A stretch of 64,000 nucleotides of DNA from Candidatus Nanopelagicales bacterium (GCA_038208295.1 JBBQYX010000006.1:15437-79436); one strand, 5' to 3'. Shown: positions 4,455 through 29,298, numbered from the stretch's first letter. Notes: generated by a model not told the origin, from the letters alone. Translations and numbers: made by a program.

Positions 4455-4521
4455 GCCGGGCAGCGTACGTCGCAGCGCCGCCATCGTGCTGCCTGGCAGC
4501 CGACCGCGTAGCGTTACCCGG

Positions 4522-6915: not shown

Positions 6916-7003
6916 CATCGCGCCGGCAGGCGGGTCATGAGCTCAGACCGCAGCTCACCCGCCATGGTTCGTCCCAGCACCCGCACCGAGGGACAATGAG
7001 CGG

Positions 7004-9468: not shown

Positions 9469-9500
9469 GGCCTGTCCTGAGGTGTCGGGGGCGAGAGGAG

Positions 9501-11569: not shown

Positions 11570-11674
11570 GCCTTCCTGAGGTGCCGATCAGTGGTGGCCC
11601 ACGGCACGCCGTGGCCGGCTGAGGAGCCCGCCTTGCGGGCCGGGCGGGAGGATCGAGGGTGCCCCGTACCGGAT

Positions 11675-11716
11675 CGGCCCCGCAACCCCCAGCGGAGAGC
11701 TGCGGATGCGGGGCCG
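11675..11716 (-). terminator. GC-rich hairpin in the 166-nt pstS-pstC spacer (possible partial terminator or processing site)
   Basis: cggccccgca (11675-11684) pairs perfectly with tgcggggccg (11707-11716). The loop contains a further cagc/gctg mini-stem. Confidence 0.45.
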
Positions 11717-11735
11717 TCCGACGGCACAGGTTCGA

Positions 11736-12863: not shown

Positions 12864-12944
12864 CGGAAGTTCCTCCGAGGTGTCGCACGGGTAGGTGGGC
12901 GATCGCCGCAGACGCTAAGGAGGGCGGGTGTCCGCGCGGCCGGT

Positions 12945-12966
12945 GGCCGGTGAACAGACCGTGAAC
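12945..12966 (-). promoter_or_regulatory. PHO-box-like operator: two 11-nt direct repeats GTTCACGGTCT GTTCACCGGCC
   Basis: Read on the pstS strand, 82-103 nt upstream of the pstS start. It has the exact 11-nt periodicity and GTTCAC core described for actinobacterial PhoP/RegX3-type operators. Confidence 0.5.
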
Positions 12967-13078
12967 GCCGCATGTCATGCCGACCAACGCCGCAGCGGGA
13001 CAACGGATCAGGCCCGTATACGACGCTCACATGGGACCTAAGGCGCCCAGTTCGCTCACGCTCGATCACCCAGTTCGC

Positions 13079-14080
13079 TCACGCTCCGTGCCGCTCCACG
13101 GACACGATGCACGGGTCCTGTGGGACGTCGCCTCCTTCGCCGCCTGGGCCCGTCGAGGACGGGTCGGTGGCAGGCAGTCGCCGGTGCAGCACCACCGCTG
13201 ACCCGGGACGCATCTTCGGACTGAAGCCGCGGGCGGGCACACCGTCGGCCGCCACCGCTGCGGCAGCGCCCAGCACGGTGGGCAGCACCGGCCGGTGGCT
13301 GCACACCACCAGCGGCCGCGCGGCCCCCAGCAGCTCTTCGGCCCGTCGACGGGCCTGATCGGGGGCTCGGGTATGCCCCTCCTCGGACAGCACGGGTTCG
13401 TCCTCGATCGTCGCCCGAATCAGGTCCGCATAAGGCCGGACGGTGTCGTGACACCGGGTCGCATCCGAGGAGTACACGGCCGCAACGCCGTACGCACCAA
13501 GCACAGCGGTCAGGTGCTGCGCCTGGCTGCGGCCCTTGCCCGACAGCGGGCGGTGGGCGTCCGCCCCGTGCCACTGCGCCCGCTTTACGGCCTGGGCATG
13601 CCGGAGCACGACCAGCGGCTCGGTCGCGCCCACGGCCACCGCCGCGGTCACCAGGTCCACGTCCCGGGGGTAGGTCAGCACCGCGGCGCAGGAGGAGGCC
13701 GGCACCCAGCGCCGCTCGTCCACCTCGTCATCGGGCAGATGCCCCAGGTCCGCCGCAGCGCGGGCCACCCAATAACGCACCACCTTGGGCCGACCCAGCG
13801 CCTCGTACCGCTGGTTCGCCAGCCGCGGGCCGAGCACCGGAGTGATGCCGGTCTCCTCAGCGCACTCGCGGACGGCCGCCGCGACCCACGACTCACCCGG
13901 ATCCAGCTTCCCCTTGGGCAGTGACCAGTCCCGGCGTTTCGGCCGGTGCACCACCAGCACCTGCGGGCCGGCCGGCGACTGGCGCAGCAGCACGACGCCG
14001 GCAGCGCGGACCACGCCGTCGGGTGCGATCACCATCACCGCGGCCGCCCCCCGGGGACCGGCCGTGGTAGGTATCCGCAA
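13079..14080 (-). CDS. mutT1: MutT1-type bifunctional protein: N-terminal NUDIX hydrolase plus C-terminal histidine phosphatase domain
   Basis: NUDIX box GKLDPGESWVAAAVRECAEETGI. The C-terminal part has the VVLRHAQA (RHG-type) motif and CSHRPVL. Adjacent to the ppk1 region as in mycobacteria. Confidence 0.85.
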   Translation of the reverse strand: MRIPTTAGPRGAAAVMVIAPDGVVRAAGVVLLRQSPAGPQVLVVHRPKRRDWSLPKGKLDPGESWVAAAVRECAEETGITPVLGPRLANQRYEALGRPKVVRYWVARAAADLGHLPDDEVDERRWVPASSCAAVLTYPRDVDLVTAAVAVGATEPLVVLRHAQAVKRAQWHGADAHRPLSGKGRSQAQHLTAVLGAYGVAAVYSSDATRCHDTVRPYADLIRATIEDEPVLSEEGHTRAPDQARRRAEELLGAARPLVVCSHRPVLPTVLGAAAAVAADGVPARGFSPKMRPGSAVVLHRRLPATDPSSTGPGGEGGDVPQDPCIVSVERHGA

Positions 14081-14094
14081 CTCATCGCCGGTGG

Positions 14095-15627
14095 TCAGCC
14101 CAGCCGGGTGCGCTGGTGCACCTTGCGTACGCGCGGCCAGGCCTTGACGAACTGCAGCCGAGCGCGGTGCTCGGCTTCCACCTCCACGCCGTGCAACAGG
14201 CCCAGCGCGAAGCCGGTGCGCCCGTCGATGCCGTCATGGCCGGCGATCTCCCGAACGGTGTCCTGGGCGATGGCCGCGTCCTGGTGCTCGCCCAACACCT
14301 CGGTCACCATTGACAGCTGCTCGGCCAGCGCCTTGGCCGGCGCCCCGAAGACCGGGACCACCGCCTCCACCGCGTACCGCGCCTTCTTGGCCGCGATCCG
14401 GGTCTCGTGCCAGTCGGTGCTGGGGCCGTCCAGCCGCAGCCCGCGTACGTCCCGGCGCAACCGCCGCCAGGCCTTGTCGACTAACGCGGGCAGCACATCG
14501 CGGGCCGGGGCCTGCGCGGCGTCGGTCAGCAACGGCGCGTGCGCCGCCTGCACCAGCGCGACCAGCAGGTCACGGTGCCGCTGGCTGCGCAGGGCCTCCA
14601 AGGCCTCCTCGCGGGCGTGCGTCAACCGCTCGCGCAGCACTCGGTCCACGGCCTCGCAGGCCAGCGCCGCGTCGTCCGGTGCCAGTCGAGCCGCGTGCGC
14701 ATCGAGGCGACCCAGCAGCACTTCGGTGTCCCGAATCGCGCCCAGTTCGCTGGCCGCCCAGCCCAGTTCAGTCCGCAGTGCCGCGGCCCATTCCGGGTCC
14801 ACCAGCGGCCCGAACGCGTGCAGGCCACTGCGCAGCCGCCGGGCGGCGACCCGCATCTGGTGGACCGCGTCGGGCAGGTCCCGACGGACCCGGACGTCCT
14901 GCAGCAGGAACCGGCGGACGTGGGTGGCCAGGTGGGCCCGTACCGCGTCGGCGGCGGGGTCCTTCGGCGACACCGGTCCGGGCGGTACGAGGTCGGGGGG
15001 CGCGGATGCGCGCGGGCCCAGGGCGTGCGCGGCCTTGGACGACGTCCCGGGGACGGCGCCGAGGTCGACGAGCAGGTCCACCACCTCACTGAGCACGGCC
15101 GCCGAGGCCTCCAGGTCGTCCCCGACAACCTCCACCTCGATCTCGCGGAAGCGGGCCGCGACGTGCTCGCCGTCCAGCACCGAGACGGTGTCATCCACCA
15201 GTTCGGCCAGGATTCGCCCGTCGTGGTCACGCAGCAGGTGCGGCACCCGGACGTTGCGCAGCGTCGCGACCGCGGTAAGCGGGTGCTCTCGGGTCAGGGC
15301 CGTCACCAGGTCGGCGAGTTCCCACGGAACCGCACCGTCCACACCGTGGTCCAGGGGCACCCGGACCTCGTCCCGCACCCCCAACCCGAAACCCTCGACG
15401 GGGAGTTTCAGATGCCAGCCGGCGTCGTGGCCACCCTCCCGCCGCCGCAGGGTGATGCCCCAGCGGAACAGCCGGAGATCCTCAGTGTCGTGATAGACCG
15501 CGGTCAACGTCAGGGGCTCCTGCCGCTCGACCGAGGCCACCAGGGACAGCGCGTCGTTCAGGTCGGGCAGCCGGAACAGCGCATGGACACGGAGTTTGCG
15601 CTCGACCTCGCGATAGGTGTCGCTCAT
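14095..15627 (-). CDS. CYTH plus CHAD domain protein (triphosphate-tunnel enzyme fused to polyphosphate-binding CHAD)
   Basis: N-terminal EVERKL (ExExK) CYTH signature. Long helical His/Arg-rich C-terminal CHAD-like half. The ATG at 15627 overlaps the ppk1 stop (TGATG). Confidence 0.88.
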   Translation of the reverse strand: MSDTYREVERKLRVHALFRLPDLNDALSLVASVERQEPLTLTAVYHDTEDLRLFRWGITLRRREGGHDAGWHLKLPVEGFGLGVRDEVRVPLDHGVDGAVPWELADLVTALTREHPLTAVATLRNVRVPHLLRDHDGRILAELVDDTVSVLDGEHVAARFREIEVEVVGDDLEASAAVLSEVVDLLVDLGAVPGTSSKAAHALGPRASAPPDLVPPGPVSPKDPAADAVRAHLATHVRRFLLQDVRVRRDLPDAVHQMRVAARRLRSGLHAFGPLVDPEWAAALRTELGWAASELGAIRDTEVLLGRLDAHAARLAPDDAALACEAVDRVLRERLTHAREEALEALRSQRHRDLLVALVQAAHAPLLTDAAQAPARDVLPALVDKAWRRLRRDVRGLRLDGPSTDWHETRIAAKKARYAVEAVVPVFGAPAKALAEQLSMVTEVLGEHQDAAIAQDTVREIAGHDGIDGRTGFALGLLHGVEVEAEHRARLQFVKAWPRVRKVHQRTRLG

Positions 15628-17804
15628 CAATGGGCCCGGCGCAGTTGCTTAGTGACGATGAGGGTCTCCTGGTAGTCGGTGAGGGGCGTGCCGTCCTCGG
15701 CGTGGGTCATCCGTGTCCAGTTGCCGTCCGGACCCAGTCGCCACGAACTGGTGCCCGGGTCCAGGGCGAAGTCGAACAGAGTCGCGATCTCGCGGACCTG
15801 ATCCGCACTACCCAGCCGGACCAGGGTTTCCACCCGCCGGTCCAGATTGCGGTGCATCAGATCCGCCGAGCCGATCCACACCTCGGGCTGACCGGCAGTC
15901 TCGAACTCGTACGCCCGGGAATGCTCCAGGAAACGACCGAGCACGCTGACGACCCGGACGTTGTCCGACAGGCCCGGGACACCCGGTCGGATCGCGCAGA
16001 TCCCCCGGACCCAGACATCGACCGGCACGCCGGCCTGCGACGCGCGGTATAGCGCGTCGATGATCCGTTCGTCCACGATCGAGTTGCACTTGAAACGAAC
16101 CCGGGCGGGCTGGCCGGCCCGGTGGTTCTCGACCTCCCGCTCGATGCGCGTGATCAACCCGGTACGGATGGAATGCGGCGCGACCAACAGTCGGTCGTAA
16201 TCGGTGTTGCGGGAATACCCGGAGAGTACGTTGAACAGCCGGGCGACGTCCTCACCAACCACCTTATCCGTGGTCAGCAGGCCGTAGTCCTCGTACAACC
16301 GGGCCGTCTTGGGGTGATAGTTACCGGTGCCCAGATGGCAGTAGCGGCGCAGCTGATCGCCGTCGTCGCGCACCACCATGGACAGCTTGCAGTGCGTCTT
16401 CAGCCCGACGAGGCCGTAGACGACGTGGACCCCGGCCTCCTCCAGTTTGCGACCCCAGTCGATGTTGGCCTTCTCGTCGAACCGGGCCTTGATTTCCACC
16501 AGGGCCAGCACCTGTTTGCCCGCCTCGGCGGCGTCGATGAGGGCGTCGATGATCGGAGAATCCCCGGACGTGCGATAGAGGGTCTGCTTGATGGCCAGCA
16601 CGTTCGGGTCCGCAGCCGCCTGCTCCAGGAACCGCTGCACGCTGGTGGAGAAGGAGTCGTACGGATGGTGAATCAGGACATCGCGCTGGCGCATCGCATC
16701 CAGGACGTCCGGAGCCATCGCGGTCTCGACGTCGGTCAGTGCACGGCTGGTCTTCGGCACGAAGGCGGGGAGTTTCAGGTCGTCCCGGTTGACGCCGACC
16801 AGGGCCCACAGCCCGGTCAGATCCAGTGGCCCCCGGAGCTGGACGACCTCCTGCTCGCTGATGCCGAGTTCGCCTACCAGCAGTTCGCGTACGTACGGAT
16901 CGATCGACTCCTCTACCTCCAGGCGGACCGGCGGACCGAACCGGCGTCGGGTGAGTTCACGCTCCAGCGCGGCGAGAAGGTTCTCGGCGTCGTCCTCCTC
17001 CACCTCCATGTCCTCGTTGCGGGTGACCCGGAAGGTGTGGTGCTGCAACACCTCCATCCCCGGGAACAACTCCCCGAGGTTGACCGCGATCACGTCCTCC
17101 AGGGGTACGAACCGCTCACCACCGAGGGCGACGAACCGCGGCAGTAGCGGTGGCACCTTGACCCGAGCGAACAACTCGGTGCCGGTCTGCGGGTTGCGGA
17201 CCACGACCGCCAAGTTCAACGACAGTCCCGAGATGTACGGGAACGGGTGCGACGGATCGACCGCGAGCGGGGTGAGCACCGGGAAAACCCGATCGACGAA
17301 CATGTCGTTCATTCGTACGCGCTCGGACTCGGTCAACTGCTCCCAGCGCAGGATCTCGATGCCCTCGCCCTGCATCGCGGGCAGCACCTCACGGTGGAAC
17401 ACCTCGGCCTGGCGCATCATCAGATCCCGGCTGCGCAGCCAGATCGCCTCGAGCACCTCCCGCGGCAACCGGCGACTGGCGGCCCGCACCGCGATACCCG
17501 TCACGATCCGCCGCTTCAGACCCGCGACCCGGACCATGAAGAACTCGTCCAGGTTGCTGGCGAAGATGGCCAGGAACTTCGCTCGCTCCAGCAGCGGCAG
17601 GTTCGCGTCCTCGGCCAGCTCCAGCACCCGCTCGTTGAACGCCAGCCAGGAAAGCTCCCGGTCCAGGAAGCGGTTTTCGGGCAGCGGCTCGTCGGTGGCC
17701 GACGGCGGCAGCGGCGTCTCCAGCGCTGGCTGGGGTGCCGAAGCCGGCTCGGAAGCCGGTGCGGCGGACTCGGCTGCGGCCTCGACGTCCTGACTCATGG
17801 TCAT
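15627..17804 (-). CDS. ppk1: Polyphosphate kinase 1
   Basis: 725 aa. [20 protein letters not shown]-terminus, the KTHCK autophosphorylation-site region ([12 protein letters not shown]), and two PLD-like C-terminal domains. Confidence 0.96.
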
Positions 17805-17874
17805 GATGCTGTCACATACGCAGACGTAGGACCGGCGAGCGGACGACCCGGTCCGCGGTCACTGACGGAACCGG

Positions 17875-18879
17875 TCAGCGCCGATACAGGACGTCGGTGT
17901 CCCAGCGAGTGAAACCCAGCGATTCGTAGACCCGGATGGCCGCGGTGTTGACGGCGTCCACATACAGCATCGCGTCGGGCAGACCGCGGGCGCGCAGATG
18001 CTGCAGTCCCGCAATCGTCAGCGAGCGGCCCAGCCCCTGCCCGCGCCGCTGGGGCGAGACCCCGACCACGTAGACCTCGCCGATCGGCGCATGCCCGTGG
18101 TCGTCATGCCGGTGGGCCGGTCCCCCGTCGTGGCTGTGGATCGCCTCACCCCCGTGCATCTTGGTCCAGTGGAATCCCACCAGCGGGCCGAAGCCGGTCG
18201 GGTCGCCCGCCCCGGGCCCGGGCGCCGACGTGCTCTGCGCCACCAGGAACCCCTCAGGGTCGAACCACGGCTCAGCCATCCGACGGTGCAGGTCTGCGAC
18301 CGTCCAGCCGGCCTGATCGGGCAGTTCGACGAAGGCGGCCGCATTCAGGGCGACCCAGTGCTCGTCGTCCTCCCCCGGGTGGAAGGCGCGGATCGTGACG
18401 TCGGCGGGCAGCCGATAGCTGGGCAGCGGCGCGTACAGGGACCGGCGCATCTGCCACAGCACGCGGGCGCGGGTGAATCCCAGCTCCCGGGCCAGCCGGC
18501 CGGCCGCCGGGTGCTCCCCGTGGGCCCACAGCCGCAGCCGACCGTCCGGGCTCTCGGCGAGCAGGCGTCGGGCCAGCAGTCGGCCCAGGCCCTGGCTGCG
18601 GAAGTGCGGATCGACGGCCATCTCGGCGCTGGAACCCTCCACCACGTCGGTGACGTCGAGATGGGCGTAGCCGGCCAGCCGGGGACCGGTGGCCGCTTCT
18701 GCCCAGACCAGGACGTGGCGCACGTCGTAGTCGCCGCCGTAGCGCAGGTGCAACGTGACGTGCTCGGACAGCGGCCGTACCCCGTCCGCCTCGGTGACCC
18801 GCTCGACCAGCATTGCCACCGCGTCCACCTCGACCGGTTCCAGGTGCGGCACCACCTCGACGCTTCCGACCCCGGCCAT
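17875..18879 (-). CDS. mshD: Mycothiol synthase MshD (tandem GNAT)
   Basis: Two GNAT repeats (RSQGLGRLL and RRGQGLGRSL acetyl-CoA loops). Length and N-terminal region are typical of MshD. Confidence 0.88.
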   Translation of the reverse strand: MAGVGSVEVVPHLEPVEVDAVAMLVERVTEADGVRPLSEHVTLHLRYGGDYDVRHVLVWAEAATGPRLAGYAHLDVTDVVEGSSAEMAVDPHFRSQGLGRLLARRLLAESPDGRLRLWAHGEHPAAGRLARELGFTRARVLWQMRRSLYAPLPSYRLPADVTIRAFHPGEDDEHWVALNAAAFVELPDQAGWTVADLHRRMAEPWFDPEGFLVAQSTSAPGPGAGDPTGFGPLVGFHWTKMHGGEAIHSHDGGPAHRHDDHGHAPIGEVYVVGVSPQRRGQGLGRSLTIAGLQHLRARGLPDAMLYVDAVNTAAIRVYESLGFTRWDTDVLYRR

Positions 18880-18916: not shown

Positions 18917-20671
18917 TCAGCCGGAGTGCGGCACGTGCAGCCGCCGACGCACTGAGGTAAGTCGGCGCGAGGACAGCCGCCCCCAGCCCCGCCCGCCCAG
19001 CAGCGCCGCGACCGCCAGCGTCGCCAGCACGGCCACCAGGATCACCGCGGCGGCCGCAGCTCCCCCGCCGCTGCCGGAATCCAGTTGGAGCACGGTCGGC
19101 TGCAGCGCGGCGTAGACCCCGGCGTCGACGCCGCCGCCCGCTGCAGCACCGGCCCCGGCGGCCCCACCGCCCACCGGGGCGGCCCCCACGCCGCCGACGG
19201 CCGCCACCGTTCCGGACCTGCCGGTCACCGTGCCACGGGCCGTCCCCGGCCCGGCGACCGTGCCACCACCCGGTGCCACGGTGCCGGCGCCGGGCAGGGC
19301 ACCGGTCGAACCGCCCGCCGTCGAGCCGGACCCGGCCGGAGTCCCCCCGCCGGTCGAGCCGCCGCCGGTCGGGCCACCGCCAGTCGGGCCACCGGCACCA
19401 CCCGCCGCAGGTGCACTGCCCCCGTCGAAAGTGCCGCTCCCGGGGACCGCACCCGCCCCCGGTGTCCAGGCCGCACTGCCGGGCAGGATGTCGGTGGCTC
19501 CCTGGCCCAGCGACCCGGTCAGCGCCGGGTTGGCACAGTTCGCCGCCGTGGGCGCCGGAAAGTTCGCGTGGCCCGGCACCTGCCCGATGGCGTCGAAGAC
19601 GACCTTGACCAGGTTGGCCGGCAACGGCGAGTAACCCAGGATCGTGGCCTTCTGCTGGCCGGCGCAGGCGAAGTACGCCATGAACTTCGAGATCACGTCA
19701 CCCTTGGCCGGATCCAGCCCAGTGGTAGGCACGATCATGTAGGAGTAGCTGGACATCGGGTAGACGTTCGGGTCGGGGTTGACATACACCGCGTCCAGGT
19801 TCTGCGTCTGGTCGGAGTTGAGCCGGGCCAGGGTTAGCGCCGTGGCGACGTTGCGCGACGTCGGCAGGACATAGCGTCCCGACCTGTTCTTCAGCGCCGC
19901 CACGGGGAAGCGTCGCTGGACCGCGTACCCGGTCTCGACGTACCCGATCGATCCGACGCCGGTGCCCGGGTTCGCCACGAAGTTCGCGACCCCGTCGGAA
20001 CCCTTCTGGGCGACGGAGTTGCTGAACGCAGGCCAGTTGGACGTTGATTCGGCGGGGATCCCCTGCTCCCGGGCGAACTTCCCCCAGATGCCGGAGGTCT
20101 GCCTGGCCAGATAGGCGGAGAACTGCGCCGATGTGCCCGACCCGTCGGACCGGATCACCGGCGTGATCGGCCGCTTCGGCAGTGCCTTGCCGTAGTCGGC
20201 CGTGATCACCGGGTCCGACCAGTCGGTGATCTGCCCCGTGAAGATCTTCCCCACGGTGTCCGGCGACAGCCGCAGGTCGCGGACCGCACGGCCGGCCGGG
20301 TCGGTCAGGTTGTACATGAACGAGGTGCCGCCGGCGACAATCGGCAGGTACGCCCAGGTTCGTCCGCGACCCTTCAGCTGACCGACCTCATCGGGCAGGA
20401 AAGGGATCTCCGAGACGGCGAAGTCCACCTGGTTGATGACGAAGAACTGCCGGCCGGCGCTGGACCCCACGCCGGAATAGTTGACGTTCAGCGCCTGTGC
20501 GCTGGCCACGTCGGCCCGCCACTGATCGACCGCGATCTGGCTCCAGGTGGATCCGGCCCCCGTGACAGTCGGGCCGTCGGCGAGGGCCGGCGGAGCGACC
20601 AGCACCACCGGAACGGCGGCGCTCACCAGGGCGAGCACCGCGGCGACAAGCCGCCGGGACGAGACCACCAT
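18917..20671 (-). CDS. PstS-family periplasmic-binding-fold protein with Gly-rich low-complexity tail, C-terminal TM helix and basic tail
   Basis: ATG at 20671 (MVVSSRRL) within ORF 18917..21094. Signal peptide ending ALADG. PstS-like motifs GAGSTWS, GVGSSAG, RSDGSGTS and LSPDTVGKIFTGQITDWSDP. The tail is about 130 aa of G/A/T/P-rich sequence, then AAAAAVILVAVLATLAVAALLGG and RLSSRRLTSVRRR. Confidence 0.8.
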   Translation of the reverse strand: MVVSSRRLVAAVLALVSAAVPVVLVAPPALADGPTVTGAGSTWSQIAVDQWRADVASAQALNVNYSGVGSSAGRQFFVINQVDFAVSEIPFLPDEVGQLKGRGRTWAYLPIVAGGTSFMYNLTDPAGRAVRDLRLSPDTVGKIFTGQITDWSDPVITADYGKALPKRPITPVIRSDGSGTSAQFSAYLARQTSGIWGKFAREQGIPAESTSNWPAFSNSVAQKGSDGVANFVANPGTGVGSIGYVETGYAVQRRFPVAALKNRSGRYVLPTSRNVATALTLARLNSDQTQNLDAVYVNPDPNVYPMSSYSYMIVPTTGLDPAKGDVISKFMAYFACAGQQKATILGYSPLPANLVKVVFDAIGQVPGHANFPAPTAANCANPALTGSLGQGATDILPGSAAWTPGAGAVPGSGTFDGGSAPAAGGAGGPTGGGPTGGGSTGGGTPAGSGSTAGGSTGALPGAGTVAPGGGTVAGPGTARGTVTGRSGTVAAVGGVGAAPVGGGAAGAGAAAGGGVDAGVYAALQPTVLQLDSGSGGGAAAAAVILVAVLATLAVAALLGGRGWGRLSSRRLTSVRRRLHVPHSG

Positions 20672-21483
20672 CAGCCGAACCTTCCGTTCACATAGTCCGC
20701 GGTACGCGAGTCCTGCGGGTCGCTGAACAACTGGTGGGTATCGCCGTGCTCGACGATGTAGCCCGGCCGGTTCTCGGCGGCGAGGAAGAACGCGCATTGC
20801 TGCGAGACCCGCTGGGCCTGCTGCATGTTGTGCGTCACGATCACGATGGTCACCCGCTGGGAGATCTCCGCCATCGTCTCCTCGATCACCCGGGTGGAGG
20901 TGGGGTCCAGCGCCGAGCACGGCTCGTCCATCAGGAGCACCTCGGGGTCCACCGCCAGGGACCGCGCGATGCACAGTCGCTGCTGCTGCCCGCCGGACAG
21001 CGCCCCGCCGGGTTGGTCCAGTCGGTCGGCCACCTCCCGCCACAATCCGGCCCGACGAAGTGACATCTCGGTGAGCTCGTCCTTGTCCGCGCACCTGATC
21101 CCGGCGAGCTTCAGACCCGACAGCACGTTGTCGCGGATCGACATCGCCGGGAACGGGTTCGGTTTCTGGAACACCATCCCGATCCGTTTGCGGGTCTCGG
21201 TCGCACGCATCTCGACGCCGTAGACGTCCTGGTGGTCCAGCAGTACCCGGCCGGCCAGCCGGGCGCCGGGGATCAGCTCGTGCATCCGGTTGAGGATCCG
21301 GAGAAACGTCGACTTGCCGCAGCCGGACGGGCCGATCAGGGCGGTCACCGTGCGCGGCGGCATCGCCAGGTCCACTCGGTCGAGCACCTTGCGCTCGCCG
21401 AACCAGGCACTGACCGCCTCGGCGACAATGCCGCCGCGTTCGGGGACGGAAACCGGTTCGAGAGCGTCCAGGGTCGCGGTCAC
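20671..21483 (-). CDS. PstB-type ABC ATPase, second copy
   Basis: GTG at 21483 overlaps the upstream stop (GTGA). [33 protein letters not shown] and the C-terminal [10 protein letters not shown] (PstB hallmark). Confidence 0.9.
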
Positions 21484-22607
21484 GATCTCCTCCTCGCGAA
21501 ACGGCGGACCCGGGAACTCCCCGTTCGGGTCCGGCCGAGGTAACGGGCGATGCTGAACAGCAGCAGGACTATGAACACCAGCACGAATGCGCCGCCGTAG
21601 GCCCGTTCCTGCTGCGCGGCGAACGGGTTCGTGAGCAACTGGTACACCGACAGGGGCAGGCTGGCCTGAGCCCCGGCGAACGGGTTCGCATTCATCGCGG
21701 TCGAGCCGAACGATGTCATGATCAGCGGCGCGGTCTCTCCGACCACCCGGGCCACGCCCAGCACCACGGCCGTGATCAGCCCGGATCGCGCAGTGGGCAG
21801 CACGACGCTCCACACGGTACGGAACTCCGTGGAGCCCAACGCCAACGAGGCCTCGCGGAGCCCGTCGGGCACCAACCGGAGGACCTCCTCCGAGGTCCGC
21901 GCGATGGTGGGCAGCATCAGGACCGACAACGCCATCGCTGCCGCGAAACCGCTGAAGGAGAAACCGAACTGCACGATCCACACCGCGTAGATGAACAGGC
22001 CCGCAACGATGGATGGCACGCCACTCATGGCGTCGATGAACATGCGCACCGGCCGGCGCAGCGGGCCGCCGACCTCGTTCAGGAACACCGCGGTCAACAC
22101 ACCCAGCGGCACCGAGATGACCACGGCCAGCGAAACCTGTTGCAGGGTGCCGACCAGGGCATGCGCCAGGCCGCCGCCGGCGTCCAGGGTACCGGTGAGC
22201 GAGAGATCCCGGGTGAAGAAGTCGGGTTTCAGCGCCGCCACGCCGCGGCCGAACACGAACAGCAGGATCAGCATCAATGGGACCAACAGCATCGCCGTCC
22301 CCAGCGTCACCACGGTCGTTGCCACCCGGTCCCGGGCCGGCAGCCGACCCAGCGTGGCCCGACAGACCACCCAGTAGAGAGCCCAGAAGGCCAATAGCCA
22401 CAGGACCAGGAAGCCCGCAATACCGGTGGTGGGGAGCAACTGGGTCCACAGCAGCCAGACCACGGACAGGGACGAAACCGCCGCACCGAACAGCAGCATC
22501 CGGTCCTCGGTGGTCGAGCCGTGGATGTGCCGTTCGACCTCCGGAGATTCCAGCGGCCGCTCGCCCGTCACCGTGGTGCGTTCGGTGAGGCTCACAGTCC
22601 TATCCAT
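21480..22607 (-). CDS. PstA-type permease, second copy
   Basis: ATG at 22607 (MDRTVSL) in ORF 21480..22676. Multi-TM with [14 protein letters not shown]. Collinear with the canonical PstA at 9501..10574. Confidence 0.85.
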
Positions 22608-22623
22608 TCGCTCGGTCCGGTGC

Positions 22624-23637
22624 TCACAGCTCCACCCCCGCACCGCTTCTCGACCGCGCCACGATCGCCGAGGCAACGAAGTTGACGGTCAGCGCCAGCG
22701 CGAACAGGGCCAGCCCGGCGGCCATCAGGGCTGACAACTGCAACGGGTCGGCCTCGCCGAAGCGCAGGGCGATCAGGGCGGCGACCGAGTTCGCTCCGGT
22801 CTGCAGCAGGTTGGGCCGGATCTCGAAGATCGGCGAGATGATCAGCGCCACCGCGATGGTCTCGCCCAGCGCCCGGCCCAGGCCCAGCATCGCGCCGCCG
22901 ATGATGCCGCCACGGCCGAACGGCAGGACGACCGCGCGCACCATGCCCCAGCGGGTGCTGCCCAGCGCCAGCGCCGCCTCCTTCTCTCCCGGCGGCGTCT
23001 GGCTGAAAACCTCCCGCACGACCGACGTGGTGATCGGCAGCACCATCAGCGACACGACCACCCCCGCGATGAACGCCGAGGACGAGTACGACTCCGCCGT
23101 GACCGCGAAGAACGGGATGAACGACAAGTGCGTCGACAGCGCCTGTGCCAGGGGCACCAGGTACTGCTGCAGGAAGATCAGTCCCCACATGCCGTAGATG
23201 AGGCTGGGAATGGCGGCCAGCAGATCGACCAGAGAGCGAAGCGGTCCGCGCAGCCGGCGCGGGGCATAGTCCGTCAGGTATAGCGCAGCCAGAATGCTCA
23301 GCGGCACCGCGATCACCAGGGCGATGAGCGCGATGACGACCGTCCAGTACAGGACCGCAGCGATCCCGAACGTGGGCGGCGTCCGGTCCGGATTCCACCT
23401 TTGCTCGGTGAAGAACGACCACCCCTGACTGGCCAGGGCTGGTTCGGCCCGGATGAGCAGAAACGCGCCGATCAGCACCAGAATCAGCAACGTGGCGATC
23501 CCGGCAGCCAGCGCGAAACCTCGGTAGACCCGGTCGACCCTGGTCCGGGCCGAGGTCAACTCGCGCGGTTGGTCCGCTTCGTTCTCCTCGATCGCGAGAT
23601 CCGAGTCGCCGAAGAACGGTTCCAGCGGCGACGACAT
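22624..23637 (-). CDS. PstC-type permease, second copy
   Basis: ATG at 23637 (MSSPLEPFF) in ORF 22624..24003. Multi-TM with KEAALALGSTRWGM. Collinear with PstC at 10574..11569. Confidence 0.85.
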   Translation of the reverse strand: MSSPLEPFFGDSDLAIEENEADQPRELTSARTRVDRVYRGFALAAGIATLLILVLIGAFLLIRAEPALASQGWSFFTEQRWNPDRTPPTFGIAAVLYWTVVIALIALVIAVPLSILAALYLTDYAPRRLRGPLRSLVDLLAAIPSLIYGMWGLIFLQQYLVPLAQALSTHLSFIPFFAVTAESYSSSAFIAGVVVSLMVLPITTSVVREVFSQTPPGEKEAALALGSTRWGMVRAVVLPFGRGGIIGGAMLGLGRALGETIAVALIISPIFEIRPNLLQTGANSVAALIALRFGEADPLQLSALMAAGLALFALALTVNFVASAIVARSRSGAGVEL

Positions 23638-23781
23638 GGGGCTCCTCGGTCGTGGATCGGCGCCGGTGTCGGTGGTTCGCTGTACGCAGTCCACCGGCGG
23701 GCGCATTGACGGCGGCCGCGCATAGGTGCGCCCCGGCTGCGCCGCAGAGCATCCGCGGCCTCGCGCAACGGCAGGGCGATA

Positions 23782-23814
23782 CCGGCGGGAACAAGCCGTG
23801 ACGAGCAGATGAAC
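23782..23814 (-). promoter_or_regulatory. Three consecutive 11-nt GTTCA-type units (GTTCATCTGCT CGTCACGGCTT GTTCCCGCCGG), PHO-operator-like
   Basis: Read on the minus strand, 145-177 nt upstream of the second pstC start, in the 254-nt divergent intergenic region. The periodicity is exact but the core conservation is only partial. Confidence 0.4.
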
Positions 23815-23891
23815 AGTCAGCGATCTGCGTTTGCACCGGCTTGACGCCATGCGGCGATGCCGCGCACCGTGCTCCCCGGTCCTGCCGAGCC

Positions 23892-25865
23892 ATGGCGGGG
23901 CCGTCGGCGAGACTGTGGGGAGTTGAGCGCGTGCGCGCCGGGACTCGTGCCGTGCTGGCCGCCGCCACGGCGGTGGTGACGGTGTTCTGCGGGATCCAAA
24001 CAATCCCGGCGTCCGCCGCCGCGAACTCGGGGCCGCGCACCGTCTCGGTCGTTCCGGCCGGCGGGCTGACCGACGACCAGACGCTCACCGTGTCCTGGTC
24101 GGGTTTCGCGCCGATCGCGGGCGTGGTGATCCGCCAGTGCGGCCCCGACCCCACCGAGGCGTCCGCCTGCAGCACGGCGCTGGTCGCCGGGGAGTCCTCC
24201 GACGAGTCCGGCCGAGGCACGGCCTCGATCCCGGTCGTCATCACCGACCCGGTGAACAACCGGCTCCTGGAGGGGGCACCGGAGGCGCGCTGCGACGCAA
24301 CGCATCCGTGCTCCATCGCCGTAGTGCCGCAGACCGCCCCCGATGACCTCAGCCAGGCAGCCATCGCGGCGATCACCTTCGCCAAGAGCCGCGCCGCCTG
24401 CCCTGAGCCGGGTGCCCTGACCCTGCGCGGGGAAGGCAGCGACAGCCTGGAACGGGCCATGCTCGCGTGGATCCCGCAGGTCTGCGACCCACCGCTGTCG
24501 GTGTCAGCCGACTACGTACCCAAGAACGACCCCAGTGGTGTGGAGGATGTGGCCTGCGGGCTGCGCGACATCGCGGGTGTCCAGGCGGCTCCCCCCGATG
24601 ACTCCTGCCCGTTCACCGGCAAGAGCCGGCCGGCGTCAGCGGTTGCGCCGGTGGCTGTTTCCGGGCTGGCCTTCGCGTTCAACATGCGCGACACCGACAC
24701 CGGGCGGCGCATCGATGCACTGAAACTCACCCCGGACGTCCTGGCCGAGATCTTCACCGGCCAGATCCTGTCCGGGCGCGATCCACGCATCACGAAACTC
24801 AACCCCGGCGTGAAACTGCCCACAAAACTGCGTCCCATCGCCCGCGCCGACCGCAGCCAGCTCACCGTGCAGATGTCCACGTTCTTCTGGCAGACCGCGC
24901 ACACGGCGTACACCTCCGGCGGTCCCGCGTTCAGCGCCGGGCCGATCGATGTCTTCCCCACGCTGGGCGGGGTGGACGCCCGCACCGGTGGCGACCCAGT
25001 GGCTCTCGCCGTCGCCCGACCGCCGGACAACAACCCAAAGTCGGACCCGACGTACGGCTACATCGGCGTGCTCGACACCAGCATGGCCGCTGCCTACGGG
25101 CTGCCCAGCGCCTCGATCCTGGGCACCGACGACAAGACGTGGGTACCGCCGACCGCCGACTCACTGGCCCGTGGGCTGGCCGCGATGAAGCCCGGTCCCA
25201 CCGGGACCCTCGTCGCGAACCCGGCACCCAAGGATCCGCGGGCGTACCGGCTGCCGGTCGTCTCCTACTTCCTGCTGCCTCCGGCCGATTCGCCGGCCAC
25301 GGTAACCGCGGCCGGGGTCCTGTTCACCGGCTGGGTGACCACCACCGGGCAAAGCAAGGACATCCTGCCGCTGGGCTACCTGGCATTGCCGCCGACGCTG
25401 GTCAGCCAGGCAGCCAACGCGTACGGACTGCGCGGGGACAGCAAGCGTGCGCCCGCCGCGGCCGACCCCAGCCCAGCACCTTCGGCCAGCGCCTCCGGCT
25501 CGGCGCCCTCGGCCGGTCCAGCCACGGCCGCCCCTGCCCCCGCGCCCGTCCAGCCCGGCGTCCCGGTCCCCGCATCGGTGGGGCCGGCAACTGCTCCGGT
25601 CGTCCCGATTGCCCCGACCGCCCTGGCTGCAGGCCAGCCGACCAACGCGCCCACGCGCCGGCCCAGCGCCTCGGCAGGCGTCACCGACCCGGTCATGGCC
25701 GCTCCCGACGCGGCAGTGCCGGCGGTCGTGACGACGTCGGTGTTCGCTCCGGCTGCCCCAGAGGGGCTGCCGGCATCATCCTGGTTGTTCCTCGCCCTCG
25801 TCTTCGGTGCCGTGACCGCGCTGCTGGCAGCGCCGCGCAGCCGCCGCCGCGGGAGCCAGTCGTGA
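23892..25865 (+). CDS. Exported multi-domain protein: neocarzinostatin-like N-domain, divergent PstS-like binding fold, Pro/Ala linker, sorting-signal-like C-terminus
   Basis: ATG at 23892 in ORF 23841..25865. Signal peptide ending PASAAA. TVSVVPAGGLTDDQTLTVSWSGF...VIRQCG...PCSIAV resembles the NCS/Ig-like domain. LTPDVLAEIFTGQILSGRDP matches the PstS-family motif. The tail is LPASS, then WLFLALVFGAVTALLAA, then PRSRRRGSQS. Confidence 0.75.
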   Translation: MAGPSARLWGVERVRAGTRAVLAAATAVVTVFCGIQTIPASAAANSGPRTVSVVPAGGLTDDQTLTVSWSGFAPIAGVVIRQCGPDPTEASACSTALVAGESSDESGRGTASIPVVITDPVNNRLLEGAPEARCDATHPCSIAVVPQTAPDDLSQAAIAAITFAKSRAACPEPGALTLRGEGSDSLERAMLAWIPQVCDPPLSVSADYVPKNDPSGVEDVACGLRDIAGVQAAPPDDSCPFTGKSRPASAVAPVAVSGLAFAFNMRDTDTGRRIDALKLTPDVLAEIFTGQILSGRDPRITKLNPGVKLPTKLRPIARADRSQLTVQMSTFFWQTAHTAYTSGGPAFSAGPIDVFPTLGGVDARTGGDPVALAVARPPDNNPKSDPTYGYIGVLDTSMAAAYGLPSASILGTDDKTWVPPTADSLARGLAAMKPGPTGTLVANPAPKDPRAYRLPVVSYFLLPPADSPATVTAAGVLFTGWVTTTGQSKDILPLGYLALPPTLVSQAANAYGLRGDSKRAPAAADPSPAPSASASGSAPSAGPATAAPAPAPVQPGVPVPASVGPATAPVVPIAPTALAAGQPTNAPTRRPSASAGVTDPVMAAPDAAVPAVVTTSVFAPAAPEGLPASSWLFLALVFGAVTALLAAPRSRRRGSQS

Positions 25866-26851
25866 GCGCACCCACGGACCACGTCCGGGAAATGATTCCG
25901 CCACCGACCGCGCCAGTGCCGACGGCGGAACTGCTGGCGGCGGACGTGGAAAATCTTCCGGACGACCCTTTCGAGACGCCCGAGCCGCCGCCCGTGGCCG
26001 CCGTCGCCCGCTACTCCGACTCCCGGTGGCCCCGTCCGACGCGGGCGCAGCTGCTGCTGGGCGTCGGCGTGTTGATTGTTTCCATGCTCGCCGTGCAGTT
26101 CCTGCTCGGCGCGCCCCTGCAGGCGCGCAGCCAGACCGTGCTGCACCAGCAGTTCGCCGACAAGCTCGCCACCGCTGCATCGACCGCCGGCCAGGTCGGC
26201 CTGTCCCCCCTACCGCCGTACCCCCCGGCCACCGGCGAGCCGGTGGCCCTGCTGCGGATCCCGGCGCTCGGGCTCAGCCAGGTGGTCACCGAAGGGGCGG
26301 ACGGGGCCACCCTGCAGAACGGCCCGGGTCACGTCCCCGGGACCGCCGGGCCGGGCGAGCCGGGCAACTCAGTCATCAGCGCGCACCGAACCGCATGGGG
26401 CGCCGCATTCCGCGGGCTGACCGGGCTGCGCGTCGGCGATCCGATCGCTGTCACCACCGTCGCCGGTACAGCCCGCTACATCGTCACCGGCACCGGGACG
26501 CCGGACCCGTTGGCGCTGACCGCCGACAACCGGCTCACCCTGGTCACCTCCGACCCGCCGCTGCTCGCATCGACCGACTACGCGGTGAGCGCTGCGTTGC
26601 AGGGGGCGCCGTTCCCGCCCACCGCTCAGAACGGCCTCGTCGACCGGCCGTTGCACTCCGGGTCACCGGCCGCGTGGGCGCAACTGGTGTTCTGGCTGTC
26701 CCTGGGGTTGGGCCTGCTCGCCGCCGTCGTCGTGGCGCTGCGCATCGGGCTGGCGCGACCCGTCATCTGGCTGCTGGCGACCCCGCTGGCCCTGGCCCTA
26801 CTGGTCGTGCTCACCCGGACCCTGGACACGTTCCTGCCCCCGACGCTGTGA
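25862..26851 (+). CDS. Sortase-fold membrane protein lacking the catalytic Cys (class E-like, TLVTS variant)
   Basis: GTG at 25862 overlaps the upstream stop (GTGA). N-terminal TM helix. GHVPGTAGPGEPGNSVISAHR matches the sortase His region. RLTLVTSDP replaces TLxTC(H)P. The translated 329 aa contain no Cys. Two extra C-terminal TM helices. Confidence 0.7.
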   Translation: MSAPTDHVREMIPPPTAPVPTAELLAADVENLPDDPFETPEPPPVAAVARYSDSRWPRPTRAQLLLGVGVLIVSMLAVQFLLGAPLQARSQTVLHQQFADKLATAASTAGQVGLSPLPPYPPATGEPVALLRIPALGLSQVVTEGADGATLQNGPGHVPGTAGPGEPGNSVISAHRTAWGAAFRGLTGLRVGDPIAVTTVAGTARYIVTGTGTPDPLALTADNRLTLVTSDPPLLASTDYAVSAALQGAPFPPTAQNGLVDRPLHSGSPAAWAQLVFWLSLGLGLLAAVVVALRIGLARPVIWLLATPLALALLVVLTRTLDTFLPPTL

Positions 26852-26941
26852 CCTGACGGCCACCGCATTGCGGTGCAGATTGGCGGCGGCAACCCGAGTT
26901 TCTGACCGGTCCGGAACCAGGTCAAACTCCTTGCCGGGTGA

Positions 26942-26963
26942 GTTCATCATTCGTTCATCATCG
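26942..26963 (+). promoter_or_regulatory. PHO-box-like operator: GTTCATCATTC GTTCATCATCG (two exact-period 11-nt direct repeats)
   Basis: Lies in an AT-richer intergenic patch 140-160 nt upstream of the GTG at 27103, in the same orientation as the downstream PstS-like gene. Confidence 0.5.
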
Positions 26964-27102
26964 CGATACGTGTGATACCGCGAACTGATCCCGGTCGATT
27001 CCCTGGAGCCGTCATAGTTCGCCCGGCCCGGGCTCGACCGGGCCCGGGCCCCCAACCCGGTGGCTCGTCTTCGTCCACGCCCTGCGTGAAGGGAACACCC
27101 AC

Positions 27103-28464
27103 GTGCGAGTCACCACCAAGGTCGGCGCTGCGATCGCCATCTGCGCCGCCGTCGGCGTCGTCGCGACGACGCTGCCCGCCTCCGCGGCCGCCGGTTGGAC
27201 CACCGGCAAACCCGTCATGATCGTCGGACAGGGCTCCGACACCAACTACGACGTCATGACGAAGCTGGACGCGTTGTACAACAACGCGCCCGGGTGCGGC
27301 GTCATCGCAAACCCCGGTGTGTCGATCGGCACGGCCGACCTGGGTTCCTGCATCGACCCGGCCACCGGCAAGGTTGCCACCCCCGACGCCAACGACGCCA
27401 TGTACCTCAATCCCCAGCACGACCAGGTGAACGAGGCGTTCCCGGTCGGTTCTGGCAGCGGCATCAAACTATTGGTCAACCAGGGCGGCGCCGGCGTACC
27501 GCAGGTCGACTTCGCCCGCTCCTCCCGGGGCCCCGGGACCGACGCGAAGACCACGAAGTTCGTGGCGTTCGCCCGTGACGGCGTCACCTGGTTCCACTTC
27601 ACCAAGGCCGCGGGGAAGTTCACCCCCTCCGCGCAGATCACGAACCTGACCCAGCAGCAACTCCTAGACGTCTTCACCGGCAAGACCACGAACTGGAAGG
27701 ACATCTCCTCGCTGGAGACGGTCCGGGTCACGAAGTACGTCGTGAAGCCGGTTTACCGCAAGGACCCCAAGACCGGACGTTTCGTCAAGGTGTTCAAGAA
27801 GGACGCGAAGACCGGCAAGGTGGTGCCCGTCACCTCCGTAGTCAAGACGTACGTGAATCAGCAGAAGACCATCACCGGCGGCGACGCCCCGATCAAGCTC
27901 TACATCGCACAGCCGGGCTCCGGCACGCTGTCGACATGGAACTCGTTCCTGGGTATCGGGACCGGCAGCAACGCGTACCCCACGGGTGACGCAGCGCCGA
28001 AGTCGATCTTCGAGAACAATGCCAACCCGATTGTGGACAATGGGGACGCGGCCAACGCCATCTTCTTCTTCTCAACCGGCCGGTACGCCCAGTCGGTCGG
28101 CAAGGCCGGCCAACTGGTGGGCAACTCCACCGGGCGGCCGAACTACACCGATGCGATCGGCAAGATCGCCGGTATCGCCCCGACCCCCGACACCATCGGC
28201 GGCAAGGACTTCCCCGGCTTCCGCAACCTCTACTTCGTGACCAACGACCCGGTCAAGGCGAACGTCGCCAACTACCTCGACCCGATCAACGGCTTCCTGT
28301 GCGGGACCAAGTCCGAGACCGTGAAGAACGCCCAGGGCGCCACGTTCCGCAGCGTCATCGAGAAGACCATCGCGAGCGAGGGCTTCGTTCCGATCGTCAA
28401 GAAGACCATCACCGACGGCGCCGCCACTGGCAGCTCCTACTGCGAGGTCTCCCGGGTTTCCTGA
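27103..28464 (+). CDS. Exported PstS-family binding-fold protein with Lys-rich insertion
   Basis: GTG at 27103 preceded by GAAGGGA. Signal peptide ending PASAAA. VGSGSGIKLL, FARSSRGPG, QPGSGTLSTW and LTQQQLLDVFTGKTTNWKDI parallel the PstS motifs. An insertion follows (KYVVKPVYRKDPKTGRFVKVFKKDAKTGKVVPV). Confidence 0.8.
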   Translation: MRVTTKVGAAIAICAAVGVVATTLPASAAAGWTTGKPVMIVGQGSDTNYDVMTKLDALYNNAPGCGVIANPGVSIGTADLGSCIDPATGKVATPDANDAMYLNPQHDQVNEAFPVGSGSGIKLLVNQGGAGVPQVDFARSSRGPGTDAKTTKFVAFARDGVTWFHFTKAAGKFTPSAQITNLTQQQLLDVFTGKTTNWKDISSLETVRVTKYVVKPVYRKDPKTGRFVKVFKKDAKTGKVVPVTSVVKTYVNQQKTITGGDAPIKLYIAQPGSGTLSTWNSFLGIGTGSNAYPTGDAAPKSIFENNANPIVDNGDAANAIFFFSTGRYAQSVGKAGQLVGNSTGRPNYTDAIGKIAGIAPTPDTIGGKDFPGFRNLYFVTNDPVKANVANYLDPINGFLCGTKSETVKNAQGATFRSVIEKTIASEGFVPIVKKTITDGAATGSSYCEVSRVS

Positions 28465-28563: not shown

Positions 28564-29298
28564 CTAGCGGGCTACCTGGAGGTCCTCGGCCAGGGTGGCC
28601 AGCGTGGTCTCGTCGGCCCGCGGCGGGACGAACCGGTAGCCGACGTTTCGGACGGTCCCGATCAGTTGGTCGTGCTCGATCCCGAGCTTGGCGCGCAGCC
28701 GCCGAACGTGGACATCCACGGTTCGCGTCCCGCCGAAGTAGTCGTAACCCCAGACCTCCTGCAGCAACTGCGCCCGGGTGAAGACACGACCCGGGTGCTG
28801 GGCCAGGAACTTGATGAGCTCGAACTCCTTGAACGTCAGGTCGAGGGTCCGCGACCGGATCCGGGCGGTGTAGGTGGCCTCGTCGATCACCAGCTCGCCG
28901 GACCGGATCTCGTCCGGCGGCTCGTCCGGCACCTGGTCGCGGGTCGCGGCCAGCCGACCGGCGGCGAACCGCAACCGGGCCTCGACCTCGGCGGGACCAG
29001 CCGAGTCCAGCAGCACCTCGTCGACCCCCCAGTCGGCGTGCACCCCGACAATGCCCCCCTCGGTGACCACCAGCAGCACCGGGACGTCGACGCCGGTCTG
29101 TCGGATCAGCCGGGTCAGGGACCGTACGTGCGGCAGGTCGCGCCGCCCGTCGACCAGGATCGCGTCCACGTGCGGGGCGTCCAGCAGCGCGCTGCCCTCT
29201 GCCGGCATGGCGCGCACCTGATGGGTCAGCAGGCCCAGCGCCGGCAGCACCTCGGTGGAGGGCACCATCGCGTTGGTCAGCAGCAGCAGTCGGCTCAT
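28564..29298 (-). CDS. glnR: GlnR, orphan OmpR-family global nitrogen regulator
   Basis: [24 protein letters not shown]... and the C-terminal [51 protein letters not shown] closely match the Streptomyces GlnR sequence as I recall it. No cognate kinase is adjacent. Confidence 0.85.

Follow-up and report, generated by a model that had tools for sequence, protein, structure and literature searches.

A putative extended Pst gene cluster of Actinomycetota combining PstS-related exported proteins with a sortase-fold protein that lacks cysteine

The closest described relative of the locus studied here is PstSCAB, the high-affinity phosphate ABC transporter of Escherichia coli, which is also known from Mycobacterium tuberculosis, where multiple PstS paralogues occur. 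The locus is located at 18917-28464 of a 64,000-nucleotide stretch of DNA from Candidatus Nanopelagicales bacterium (GCA_038208295.1 JBBQYX010000006.1:15437-79436); the whole stretch is called the window below. The locus encodes a second set of Pst permeases and ATPase (PstC', PstA' and PstB'), three exported proteins related to PstS (P1, P2 and P3) and a sortase-fold protein, named the pseudo-sortase here. The best explanation of the whole, with a probability of about 0.45, is that the locus belongs to an "extended Pst" gene cluster which is widespread in Actinomycetota and has so far not been described.

The cluster resembled PstSCAB in several respects. PstC', PstA' and P1 passed the equivalog cutoffs of the Pst families and PstB' nearly did; the phosphate-ligand set of P1 was kept, and PHO-box-like repeats were found upstream. 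The differences from PstSCAB were the gene order (C-A-B-S), the Glu of P1 at the position of Asp56 (D56), the anchoring of P1 by a C-terminal transmembrane helix after a long Gly-rich tail and not by an N-terminal lipid, and the addition of two PstS-derived proteins and a sortase-fold protein.

For the sortase-fold protein, the closest described enzymes are the class E sortases, such as SrtE1 and SrtE2 of Streptomyces coelicolor with their LAXTG signal (PMC5148588). The pseudo-sortase had its best hidden Markov model (HMM) match in this class and shared the N-terminal transmembrane helix and the GPGH…PG.PGN motif. It differed in a score of only half the class cutoff, in the absence of Cys, in a His that is mostly Arg in the family and in a beta8 Arg that is mostly lost. 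It also had two extra conserved C-terminal transmembrane helices and a PTPQNG motif, and its partner P2 was without LAXTG.

Pairs of a dedicated sortase and a single adjacent substrate are a known arrangement, for example the class GN "marine" sortase (TIGR03784), and the Cys is kept there. The cluster was similar in that one sortase-fold gene stands beside one protein with a C-terminal signature of motif, transmembrane helix and basic residues, but its pseudo-sortase has no nucleophile and is sometimes fused to P2. The iRhoms and Derlins of the rhomboid family are pseudo-proteases that bind former substrates rather than cutting them. The pseudo-sortase would resemble them as a dead member of a processing-enzyme family, kept under selection with a membrane-anchored client; its fold and domain of life are unrelated to theirs, and its binding of the client is a proposal.

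No paper on the cluster or on Cys-less sortases was found in the literature, and neither NCBIfam nor Pfam had a model specific to P2, P3 or the pseudo-sortase family. The parts are of known kinds (Pst transporter, PstS fold and sortase fold). What is new, as far as established, is their combination, together with the loss of catalysis, the conserved tail of P2 and the fusions.

Gene order and conservation of the cluster

The window has a G+C content of about 70%, and genes were told from spurious open reading frames by third-position G+C and family searches. The cutoffs were the NCBIfam equivalog (TIGR) and Pfam thresholds. The minus strand carried pstC' (22624-23637; TIGR02138, 269 bits, cutoff 196.45), pstA' (21480-22607; TIGR00974, 261.6 bits, cutoff 193.45), pstB' (20671-21483; TIGR00972; ABC_tran, 4e-31) and P1 (18917-20671; 584 amino acids (aa); TIGR00975 PstS, 208.2 bits, cutoff 205; PBP_like_2, 3e-42), in this order. 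P2 (23892-25865), the pseudo-sortase gene (25862-26851; PF04203, 65.6 bits) and P3 (27103-28464; PBP_like_2, 44 bits, cutoff 27) were divergent from these genes on the plus strand. Family models and coordinates agreed with the second pstC-pstA-pstB set in C-A-B-S order described in the original prediction, a reading of the window made from its sequence, and the PBP_like_2/PstS, neocarzinostatin and sortase families named there were all matched.

Adjacent genes of the locus were coupled. The GTG start of pstB' overlapped the TGA stop of pstA' (GTGA, 21480-21483), and the ATG of P1 overlapped the TGA of pstB' (TGATG, 20669-20673), both as had been predicted. The GTG start of the pseudo-sortase gene overlapped the stop of P2 (GTGA, 25862-25865), and the gap between the pseudo-sortase gene and P3 was 251 nt. 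The start of PstA' was uncertain, with an alternative ATG at 22499, and P2 had an alternative GTG start at 23931, which is the start in the public gene call. The canonical pstSCAB operon expected at 8686-12863 was found there, and its four proteins passed all four equivalog cutoffs. A decaying duplicate was rejected for the second locus in view of the strong third-position G+C bias, the intact reading frames and the deep conservation.

The conservation of the cluster was investigated by scanning one genome per species with a 10-sequence pseudo-sortase alignment. A total of 220 relatives were found and 80 loci were returned, onto which the window proteins and their relatives were mapped by tblastn. 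A P2-like gene lay near the pseudo-sortase gene in 79 of the 80 loci, so the pair of binding protein and sortase-like protein first noticed in the window is co-conserved. P3-like genes were present in 71 loci, P1-like genes in 67 and PstC/A/B in 66; 65 loci had all of them. The locus as a whole is strongly co-conserved, and a lack of such conservation in relatives was what the original prediction had named as refuting it. Most missing genes coincided with flanks of less than 10 kb. The other gaps were in Acidimicrobiia operons, where extra genes (fn3 and neocarzinostatin (NCS)-like proteins) push the pst genes out of range.

The carriers included about 45 Amycolatopsis species, Actinomadura, Spirillospora, Herbihabitans, metagenome-assembled genomes of Kineosporiaceae and Lapillicoccus, Aquihabitans, and many Acidimicrobiales (Iamiaceae, Microthrixaceae and Acidimicrobiaceae). 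The usual order in Acidimicrobiia was pstC-pstA-pstB-P1-P3-(NCS/fn3 genes)-P2-pseudo-sortase on a single strand. The loci of Actinomycetes resembled the window, with the pst genes on one arm and P2 on the other, transcribed divergently. The closest relative locus (L087, a 63.8-kb metagenome contig) had a gene order identical to that of the window and unrelated flanks; its P2 was 46% and its pseudo-sortase 49% identical to the window proteins.

Some Acidimicrobiales loci (L002 1081-11456, L004 5153-7882 and others) also encoded extra secreted proteins that start with an NCS-like immunoglobulin (Ig) domain of the P2 type. These were small proteins (about 180-230 aa) and fn3 proteins. A WxLIP peptidoglycan-binding-domain protein with a C-terminal anchor was encoded at L002 10356-11456.

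The pseudo-sortase and its partner P2

The original prediction had described a Cys-less sortase-fold protein coupled to one of the binding proteins, and the PF04203 match, the absence of Cys and the GTGA overlap with P2 bear this out. The protein was composed of an N-terminal cytoplasmic tail, a first transmembrane helix, an extracytoplasmic sortase-fold domain and two C-terminal transmembrane helices. There was no Cys anywhere in the window protein, which reads LTLVTS where sortases have TLxTC. The His was retained (AHR), and the beta8 Arg was missing (STDYAV). The best sequence match was the class E sortase HMM, with 82.8 bits against a cutoff of 160; no curated NCBIfam model covered the family, for which this model gave 83-84 bits. 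The AlphaFold2 (AF2) model, built from 32 sequences with a predicted local distance difference test (pLDDT) score of 85, showed a long N-terminal transmembrane/stalk helix, a beta-barrel and two C-terminal transmembrane helices. A Foldseek search of PDB with this model returned sortases only, with target-normalised TM-scores of 0.79 to class D and 0.65-0.71 to class E. The single best match was the class D sortase 4d70; the class E matches included 5go5, 9iok and 5cuw.

Sortase activity requires a His/Cys/Arg triad, which is His120/Cys184/Arg197 in SrtA and His251/Cys320/Arg329 in SrtE1 (PMC5148588). The nearest relatives of the window protein were about 39% identical, and nearly all of them read LTLVT[S/A/G]. 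A profile search of 1.84 billion representative proteins (50% identity clusters) gave 1,565 representatives at E <= 1e-30. The active-site statistics were taken from the best 150 of these, all of them (nearly) full-length profile matches aligned to the profile. The Cys position was occupied by Ser in 109, Ala in 22, Thr in 6, Gly in 2 and Asn, Leu or Val in 1 each, and by Cys in none. The His position was Arg in 127, His in 13 and Lys in 2, and the beta8 Arg was kept in about 57. Conserved instead were the class E scaffold motifs GPGH…PG.PGN, the PTPQNG motif after the barrel and the two C-terminal helices (LYRR…AYLLT.P…AE..SRLLPAW).

Because the Cys was absent in 150 of 150 representatives and the His was Arg in 127, the family is, to judge from these alignments, a pseudo-enzyme whose catalytic residues have been lost. 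There is a fair chance that it defines a new functional class. About 1,500 clusters (50% identity) scored at E <= 1e-30, and the best 150 of these are all clear Cys-less members. Some database sources name members "sortase", "sortase A" or "class E sortase". Since none of the best 150 representatives has the catalytic Cys needed for sortase chemistry, these labels are an annotation error worth fixing. For sortase biology, the family would show how a processing enzyme can naturally become a module for binding, with the P2 tail as candidate client and, in some members, a fusion to it.

P2 consisted of a signal peptide, an NCS-like Ig domain (aa 51-163), a degenerate PstS domain (aa ~173-512), a P/A-rich linker and a C-terminus with the motif GLPASSW, a transmembrane helix and the basic cluster RSRRRG (last 33 aa; 25764-25862, plus strand). 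The N-domain matched Pfam PF00960 (36.7 bits, cutoff 25) and the C-1027 apoprotein in PDB (2e-4). An enediyne apoprotein was rejected as the identity of P2, because the NCBIfam chromoprotein equivalog scored 49.3 against a cutoff of 86 and P2 relatives from other lineages were not recognised by Pfam. These scores indicate that the domain is a fold relative of the neocarzinostatin family and not an antibiotic apoprotein.

The relation of P2 to the PstS-type fold was supported by sequence comparison. Its PstS domain matched TIGR00975 at 1e-19 (aa 179-510) and PstS structures in PDB at 5e-10, and P2 was 28% identical to P1 over 346 aa (E 3e-19). Phosphate ligands were compared by alignment to E. 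coli PstS (T10, F11, S38, D56, R135, S139, G140 and T141). Five of the eight were replaced in window P2: T10->D, F11->S, D56->Q, G140->Q and T141->L. The S38 position was also not conserved (Asp in the family alignment column; ambiguous in the pairwise alignment). Only R135 and S139 were retained, together with D137, the salt-bridge partner. In a less certain alignment, the pocket of the P2 family was mostly acidic, and its positions in other lineages were mostly Asp/Glu, Arg and Gly/Ala. Since most phosphate ligands have been lost, P2 probably does not bind phosphate in the canonical way.

Outside the PstS-like C-lobe, P2 relatives of the 80 loci had little common sequence apart from a C-terminal signature. 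This signature was [IV]P.[FY].G or S(P/A)ASW, followed by a transmembrane segment of about 20 residues and usually by (S/T)(S/A)GR on the cytoplasmic side. The form [IV]P.[FY].G was found in Actinomycetes and many Acidimicrobiia, and S(P/A)ASW in Acidimicrobiaceae; GLPASSW is the counterpart in the window. An LPXTG/LAXTG-type signal was absent from these tails, which have no Thr-Gly. The original prediction had called the tail of P2 sorting-signal-like. Because P2-pseudo-sortase fusions retain the same segment as an internal transmembrane helix, the tail is most likely a stable membrane anchor with a family-specific motif and not a cleaved LPXTG signal.

These fusions made up 14 of the best 150 representatives and were 943-1090 aa long. 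Their layout was an NCS-like domain, degenerate PstS domain, linker, motif, transmembrane helix, short cytoplasmic loop, and the first transmembrane helix and barrel of the pseudo-sortase, which gives a self-consistent topology (outside, membrane, inside, membrane, outside). One fusion was situated in an operon of the same pst type (permease-ATPase-binding protein-binding protein-fn3-…-fusion). Where the two genes are separate, a 4-nt overlap of P2 stop and pseudo-sortase start was found in the window and in loci L087 and L002. In Herbihabitans rhizosphaerae (L005/L047 9459-10915), the pseudo-sortase was preceded by a 181-aa protein that is essentially an IPLFPG-transmembrane-…SG… tail only, with no pst genes or P3 nearby.

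The adjacency, the tail signature, the reduced Herbihabitans pair, the fusions and the fusion within a pst operon agree with one another, which suggests that P2 and the pseudo-sortase are one functional unit. We infer that the former substrate groove of the pseudo-sortase, beside which the anchor would lie, binds the P2 motif in a non-covalent complex. P2 would be a PstS-derived surface protein without canonical phosphate binding, held by its own C-terminal membrane helix; the pseudo-sortase would bind the short motif and adjoining helix without cleaving them, and the two would act as a single membrane complex.

Two further gene arrangements were observed around this pair. On the metagenome contig of one fusion (P0136, JGI 3300047160), an 863-aa protein with Peptidase_S8 (subtilisin) and PBP_like_2 domains was encoded downstream. 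In Actinomadura rugatobispora and Spirillospora (L016 11090-13111 and L044), an insertion between pseudo-sortase and P2 encoded a genuine class E sortase (AGHR…LTLTTC…R) and a protein with an LPKTG signal.

An active enzyme was considered as another explanation. The sortase-fold protein would then be a Ser-nucleophile transpeptidase or peptidase that cleaves the P2 motif, and P2 would be released or attached to the wall. Some findings fit such an activity and count against a purely binding role: Ser is the majority residue at the Cys position (about 77% of aligned representatives, and 78 of the 80 genome loci), the window protein retains its His, P2 tails look tripartite like a sorting signal (motif, hydrophobic helix and basic residues), and dedicated sortase-substrate gene pairs are known. 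The tail of window P2, the most divergent version of the family signature, has no SGR, which also counts against the main explanation. With Ser prevalent and the His kept in the window protein, the pseudo-sortase may have residual or altered catalytic activity. However, about one fifth of the representatives have Ala, Gly, Val, Leu or Asn in place of Ser; intact clusters contained variants with Ala (P0030) and with Gly (P0003), so Ser cannot be an obligatory nucleophile. In 129 of 150 representatives Arg or Lys replaced the His, the beta8 Arg was missing in most, the P2 motif has no Thr-Gly scissile pair, and the fusions retain the segment within the membrane. An active Ser enzyme was judged very unlikely.

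The loss of phosphate ligands in P2 also raised another explanation, in which P2, the pseudo-sortase and P3 form a structural or adhesive surface complex that has nothing to do with transport and is simply carried along with a pst operon. The fn3, NCS-like and WxLIP peptidoglycan-binding-domain proteins of Acidimicrobiia clusters are compatible with it, as are the loci without pst genes within 10 kb. Against it, 65-66 of the 80 loci, from two classes, had PstCAB and P1 together with the module. In Acidimicrobiia, pstCAB, P1, P3, further genes, P2 and the pseudo-sortase form one same-strand run. Most exceptions are truncated flanks or long inserted gene runs, and P2 and P3 are both PstS-derived. 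A complex unrelated to transport was regarded as distinctly unlikely.

P1, P3 and possible phosphate control

P1 was composed of a signal peptide, a PstS domain, a Gly/Ala/Thr-rich tail of about 175 aa, a C-terminal transmembrane helix and a basic end. Seven of the eight phosphate ligands were kept (T10, W11, S38, R135, S139, G140 and T141), and D56 was Glu. The P1 family keeps S/T10, Y/W11, S38, R135, S139, G140 and T141, and D56 was replaced by Glu in P1 and 64 of 65 relatives of the same alignment. D56 is the residue that tells phosphate from sulfate in PstS. By this alignment P1 can credibly be regarded as binding phosphate, with D56 as the one position changed in its family. PstC'A'B' and the tail-anchored P1 would constitute a working ABC importer for phosphate or a close oxyanion.

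P3 had a signal of the signal peptidase I type with an AxA cleavage site, and its translation showed no lipobox and no transmembrane anchor. A lipoprotein anchor was rejected on this basis. The motifs GSDTT, GSG.G, DFARSS, Q…SGT and ENN and a C-terminal Cys pair were invariant in the family alignment. The AF2 model of P3 had a pLDDT of 79; its top 38 fold matches in PDB were all phosphate-binding proteins, with a best target-normalised TM-score of 0.83 (4gd5). According to this model P3 is a divergent PstS-type type-II binding fold, which is what the original prediction had expected. Without an anchor, any retention of P3 must come via binding to something, and P2 is the obvious candidate, although this is speculation.

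The Lys-rich insertion of P3 (about 55 aa, aa ~202-256; 27706-27870, plus strand), delimited by the family alignment and AF2, contained internal repeats (…KDPKTGRFVKVFKKDAKTGKVVPV…) and was predicted to be a long beta-hairpin arm (AF2 strands 202-216 and 244-258, pLDDT ~86-91). The insertion was listed in the original prediction among the features of the locus. It is present, but it was missing from 15 of 15 aligned homologues; in this alignment it is private to the window organism. The other appendages claimed there (Gly-rich tail and transmembrane helix of P1, NCS-like domain and P/A linker of P2) were equally real. The peptide motifs quoted for P1, P2 and P3, which had been set beside the canonical PstS motif LTADDIAGIFAGKITKWNDP, were all found in the translations; the comparison with translations covered these three proteins. 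The anion-binding motifs were also all present, but the two motif lists had not followed the same order of proteins, since QPGSGTLS comes from P3 and RADRSQLT from P2.

The ligand positions of P1 and P3 bear on a further explanation, which is that the system handles another ligand (arsenate, phosphite, pyrophosphate/polyphosphate or organophosphate) or is mainly a phosphate sensor feeding the Pho two-component system. Several points favour it over phosphate import. The change D56E was uniform in the P1 family, and to our knowledge all characterised PstS proteins have D56. The P3 family always had Gln at the phosphate-binding Arg135 position, and an Asp in the first loop (GSDTT). PstB' scored 331.3 bits, slightly under the TIGR00972 cutoff of 343.2, with TIGR00972 still the best-scoring family by far. 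A canonical pstSCAB was also already present in the same window. On the other side, seven of the eight phosphate ligands of P1 were unchanged, PstC' and PstA' passed the Pst equivalog thresholds, the best fold matches of P3 were all orthophosphate binders, and no signalling domain was found in any cluster protein. Another ligand or a sensor role was considered unlikely.

In Streptomyces, PhoP binds to 11-nt direct repeats built on a GTTCA core. Repeats of this type had been predicted before two transcription units, and they were present upstream of pstC' and P3. Three 11-nt-phased PHO-box-like units, read from the sequence, were found at 23782-23814 on the minus strand (GTTCATCTGCT CGTCACGGCTT GTTCCCGCCGG), 145-177 nt ahead of pstC', within the promoter region from which pstC' and P2 diverge. 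The core TGAACAGTC was common to the divergent promoter regions of the window and L087. Two direct-repeat units were found about 140-160 nt upstream of P3 at 26942-26963 on the plus strand (GTTCATCATTC GTTCATCATCG), and similar units preceded P3 in L087. The exact pattern GTTCAn6GTTCA had 2 matches in 64 kb, one before P3 (26942-26957) and one 90-100 nt upstream of the canonical pstS (12951-12966). This count was not above chance (mean 1.3 in shuffles); both matches lay in promoters of Pst-type genes.

The related loci were examined in the same way with up to one mismatch. Of 77 matches, 21 were within the 8.9% of strand-positions near cluster gene starts (400 nt upstream to 50 nt downstream), giving p ≈ 3e-6, a value that takes no account of the lower G+C content between genes or of how closely the loci are related. 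The positives were almost all in Acidimicrobiales, and the roughly 45 Amycolatopsis loci yielded no PHO-box-like pair at <=1 mismatch. The limits of this p value and the result in Amycolatopsis count against Pho control. Pho control is plausible from the repeats, and expression would probably be driven by a PhoP-type regulator under phosphate limitation.

In the extended Pst explanation, P3 would be a secreted PstS-fold partner of the P2-pseudo-sortase complex and may be an outer capture or hand-over component. The complex is possibly an outer capture/hand-over station across the thick wall, or serves in P3 retention or transporter regulation. The system would also include additional NCS-like and fn3 proteins at the surface in some lineages. 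A stronger version holds that this is the first recognised pseudo-sortase family acting as a non-covalent docking partner (or fused domain) of the P2 tail, within an envelope-spanning phosphate capture/hand-over apparatus with a tail-anchored PstS, a secreted PstS-like protein and a second Pst system. This version is put forward tentatively, and its correctness is doubtful.

As regards phosphate physiology, the cluster suggests that Actinomycetota with thick walls or with mycelial or filamentous growth have a layer of phosphate acquisition that is still unexplored. The carriers include the antibiotic producers Amycolatopsis and Actinomadura, and wastewater and freshwater Microthrixaceae and Iamiaceae (Acidimicrobiales). 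Phosphate control is tightly tied to antibiotic production in actinomycetes, so a second Pst system bearing Pho boxes is of practical interest.

Neighbouring genes in the window

On the minus-strand side of the locus, the window contained the canonical pstBACS, a NUDIX/His-phosphatase (MutT1-like) gene, a CYTH-CHAD gene, ppk1 and mshD (8686-18879). This region is a phosphate/polyphosphate island adjoining the accessory locus. On the other side were a GlnR-like regulator and an alpha/beta hydrolase. The regulator gene (28564-29298, minus strand) encodes an orphan GlnR-family response regulator (GlnR_1st 1e-40 and Trans_reg_C) and lies directly downstream of P3 on the opposite strand.

In other genomes, ppk, mshD and the GlnR-like gene did not lie close to the cluster. 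The idea that the cluster is functionally tied to any of these three genes was rejected because the adjacency is not conserved elsewhere, and the position of the GlnR-family gene next to P3 probably reflects synteny rather than function. Since its window neighbours do not accompany it elsewhere, the cluster is an autonomous module.

The six window proteins that were present in a collection of about 15 billion proteins, the polyphosphate kinase among them, were all singletons at 90% identity, and the source is an otherwise unsampled lineage. Two adjacent helicase genes were located upstream of the canonical pstB (4324-8659); one encodes a protein with Helicase_C_3 and WYL domains, and the other an ERCC3/XPB-type helicase with Helicase_C_3.

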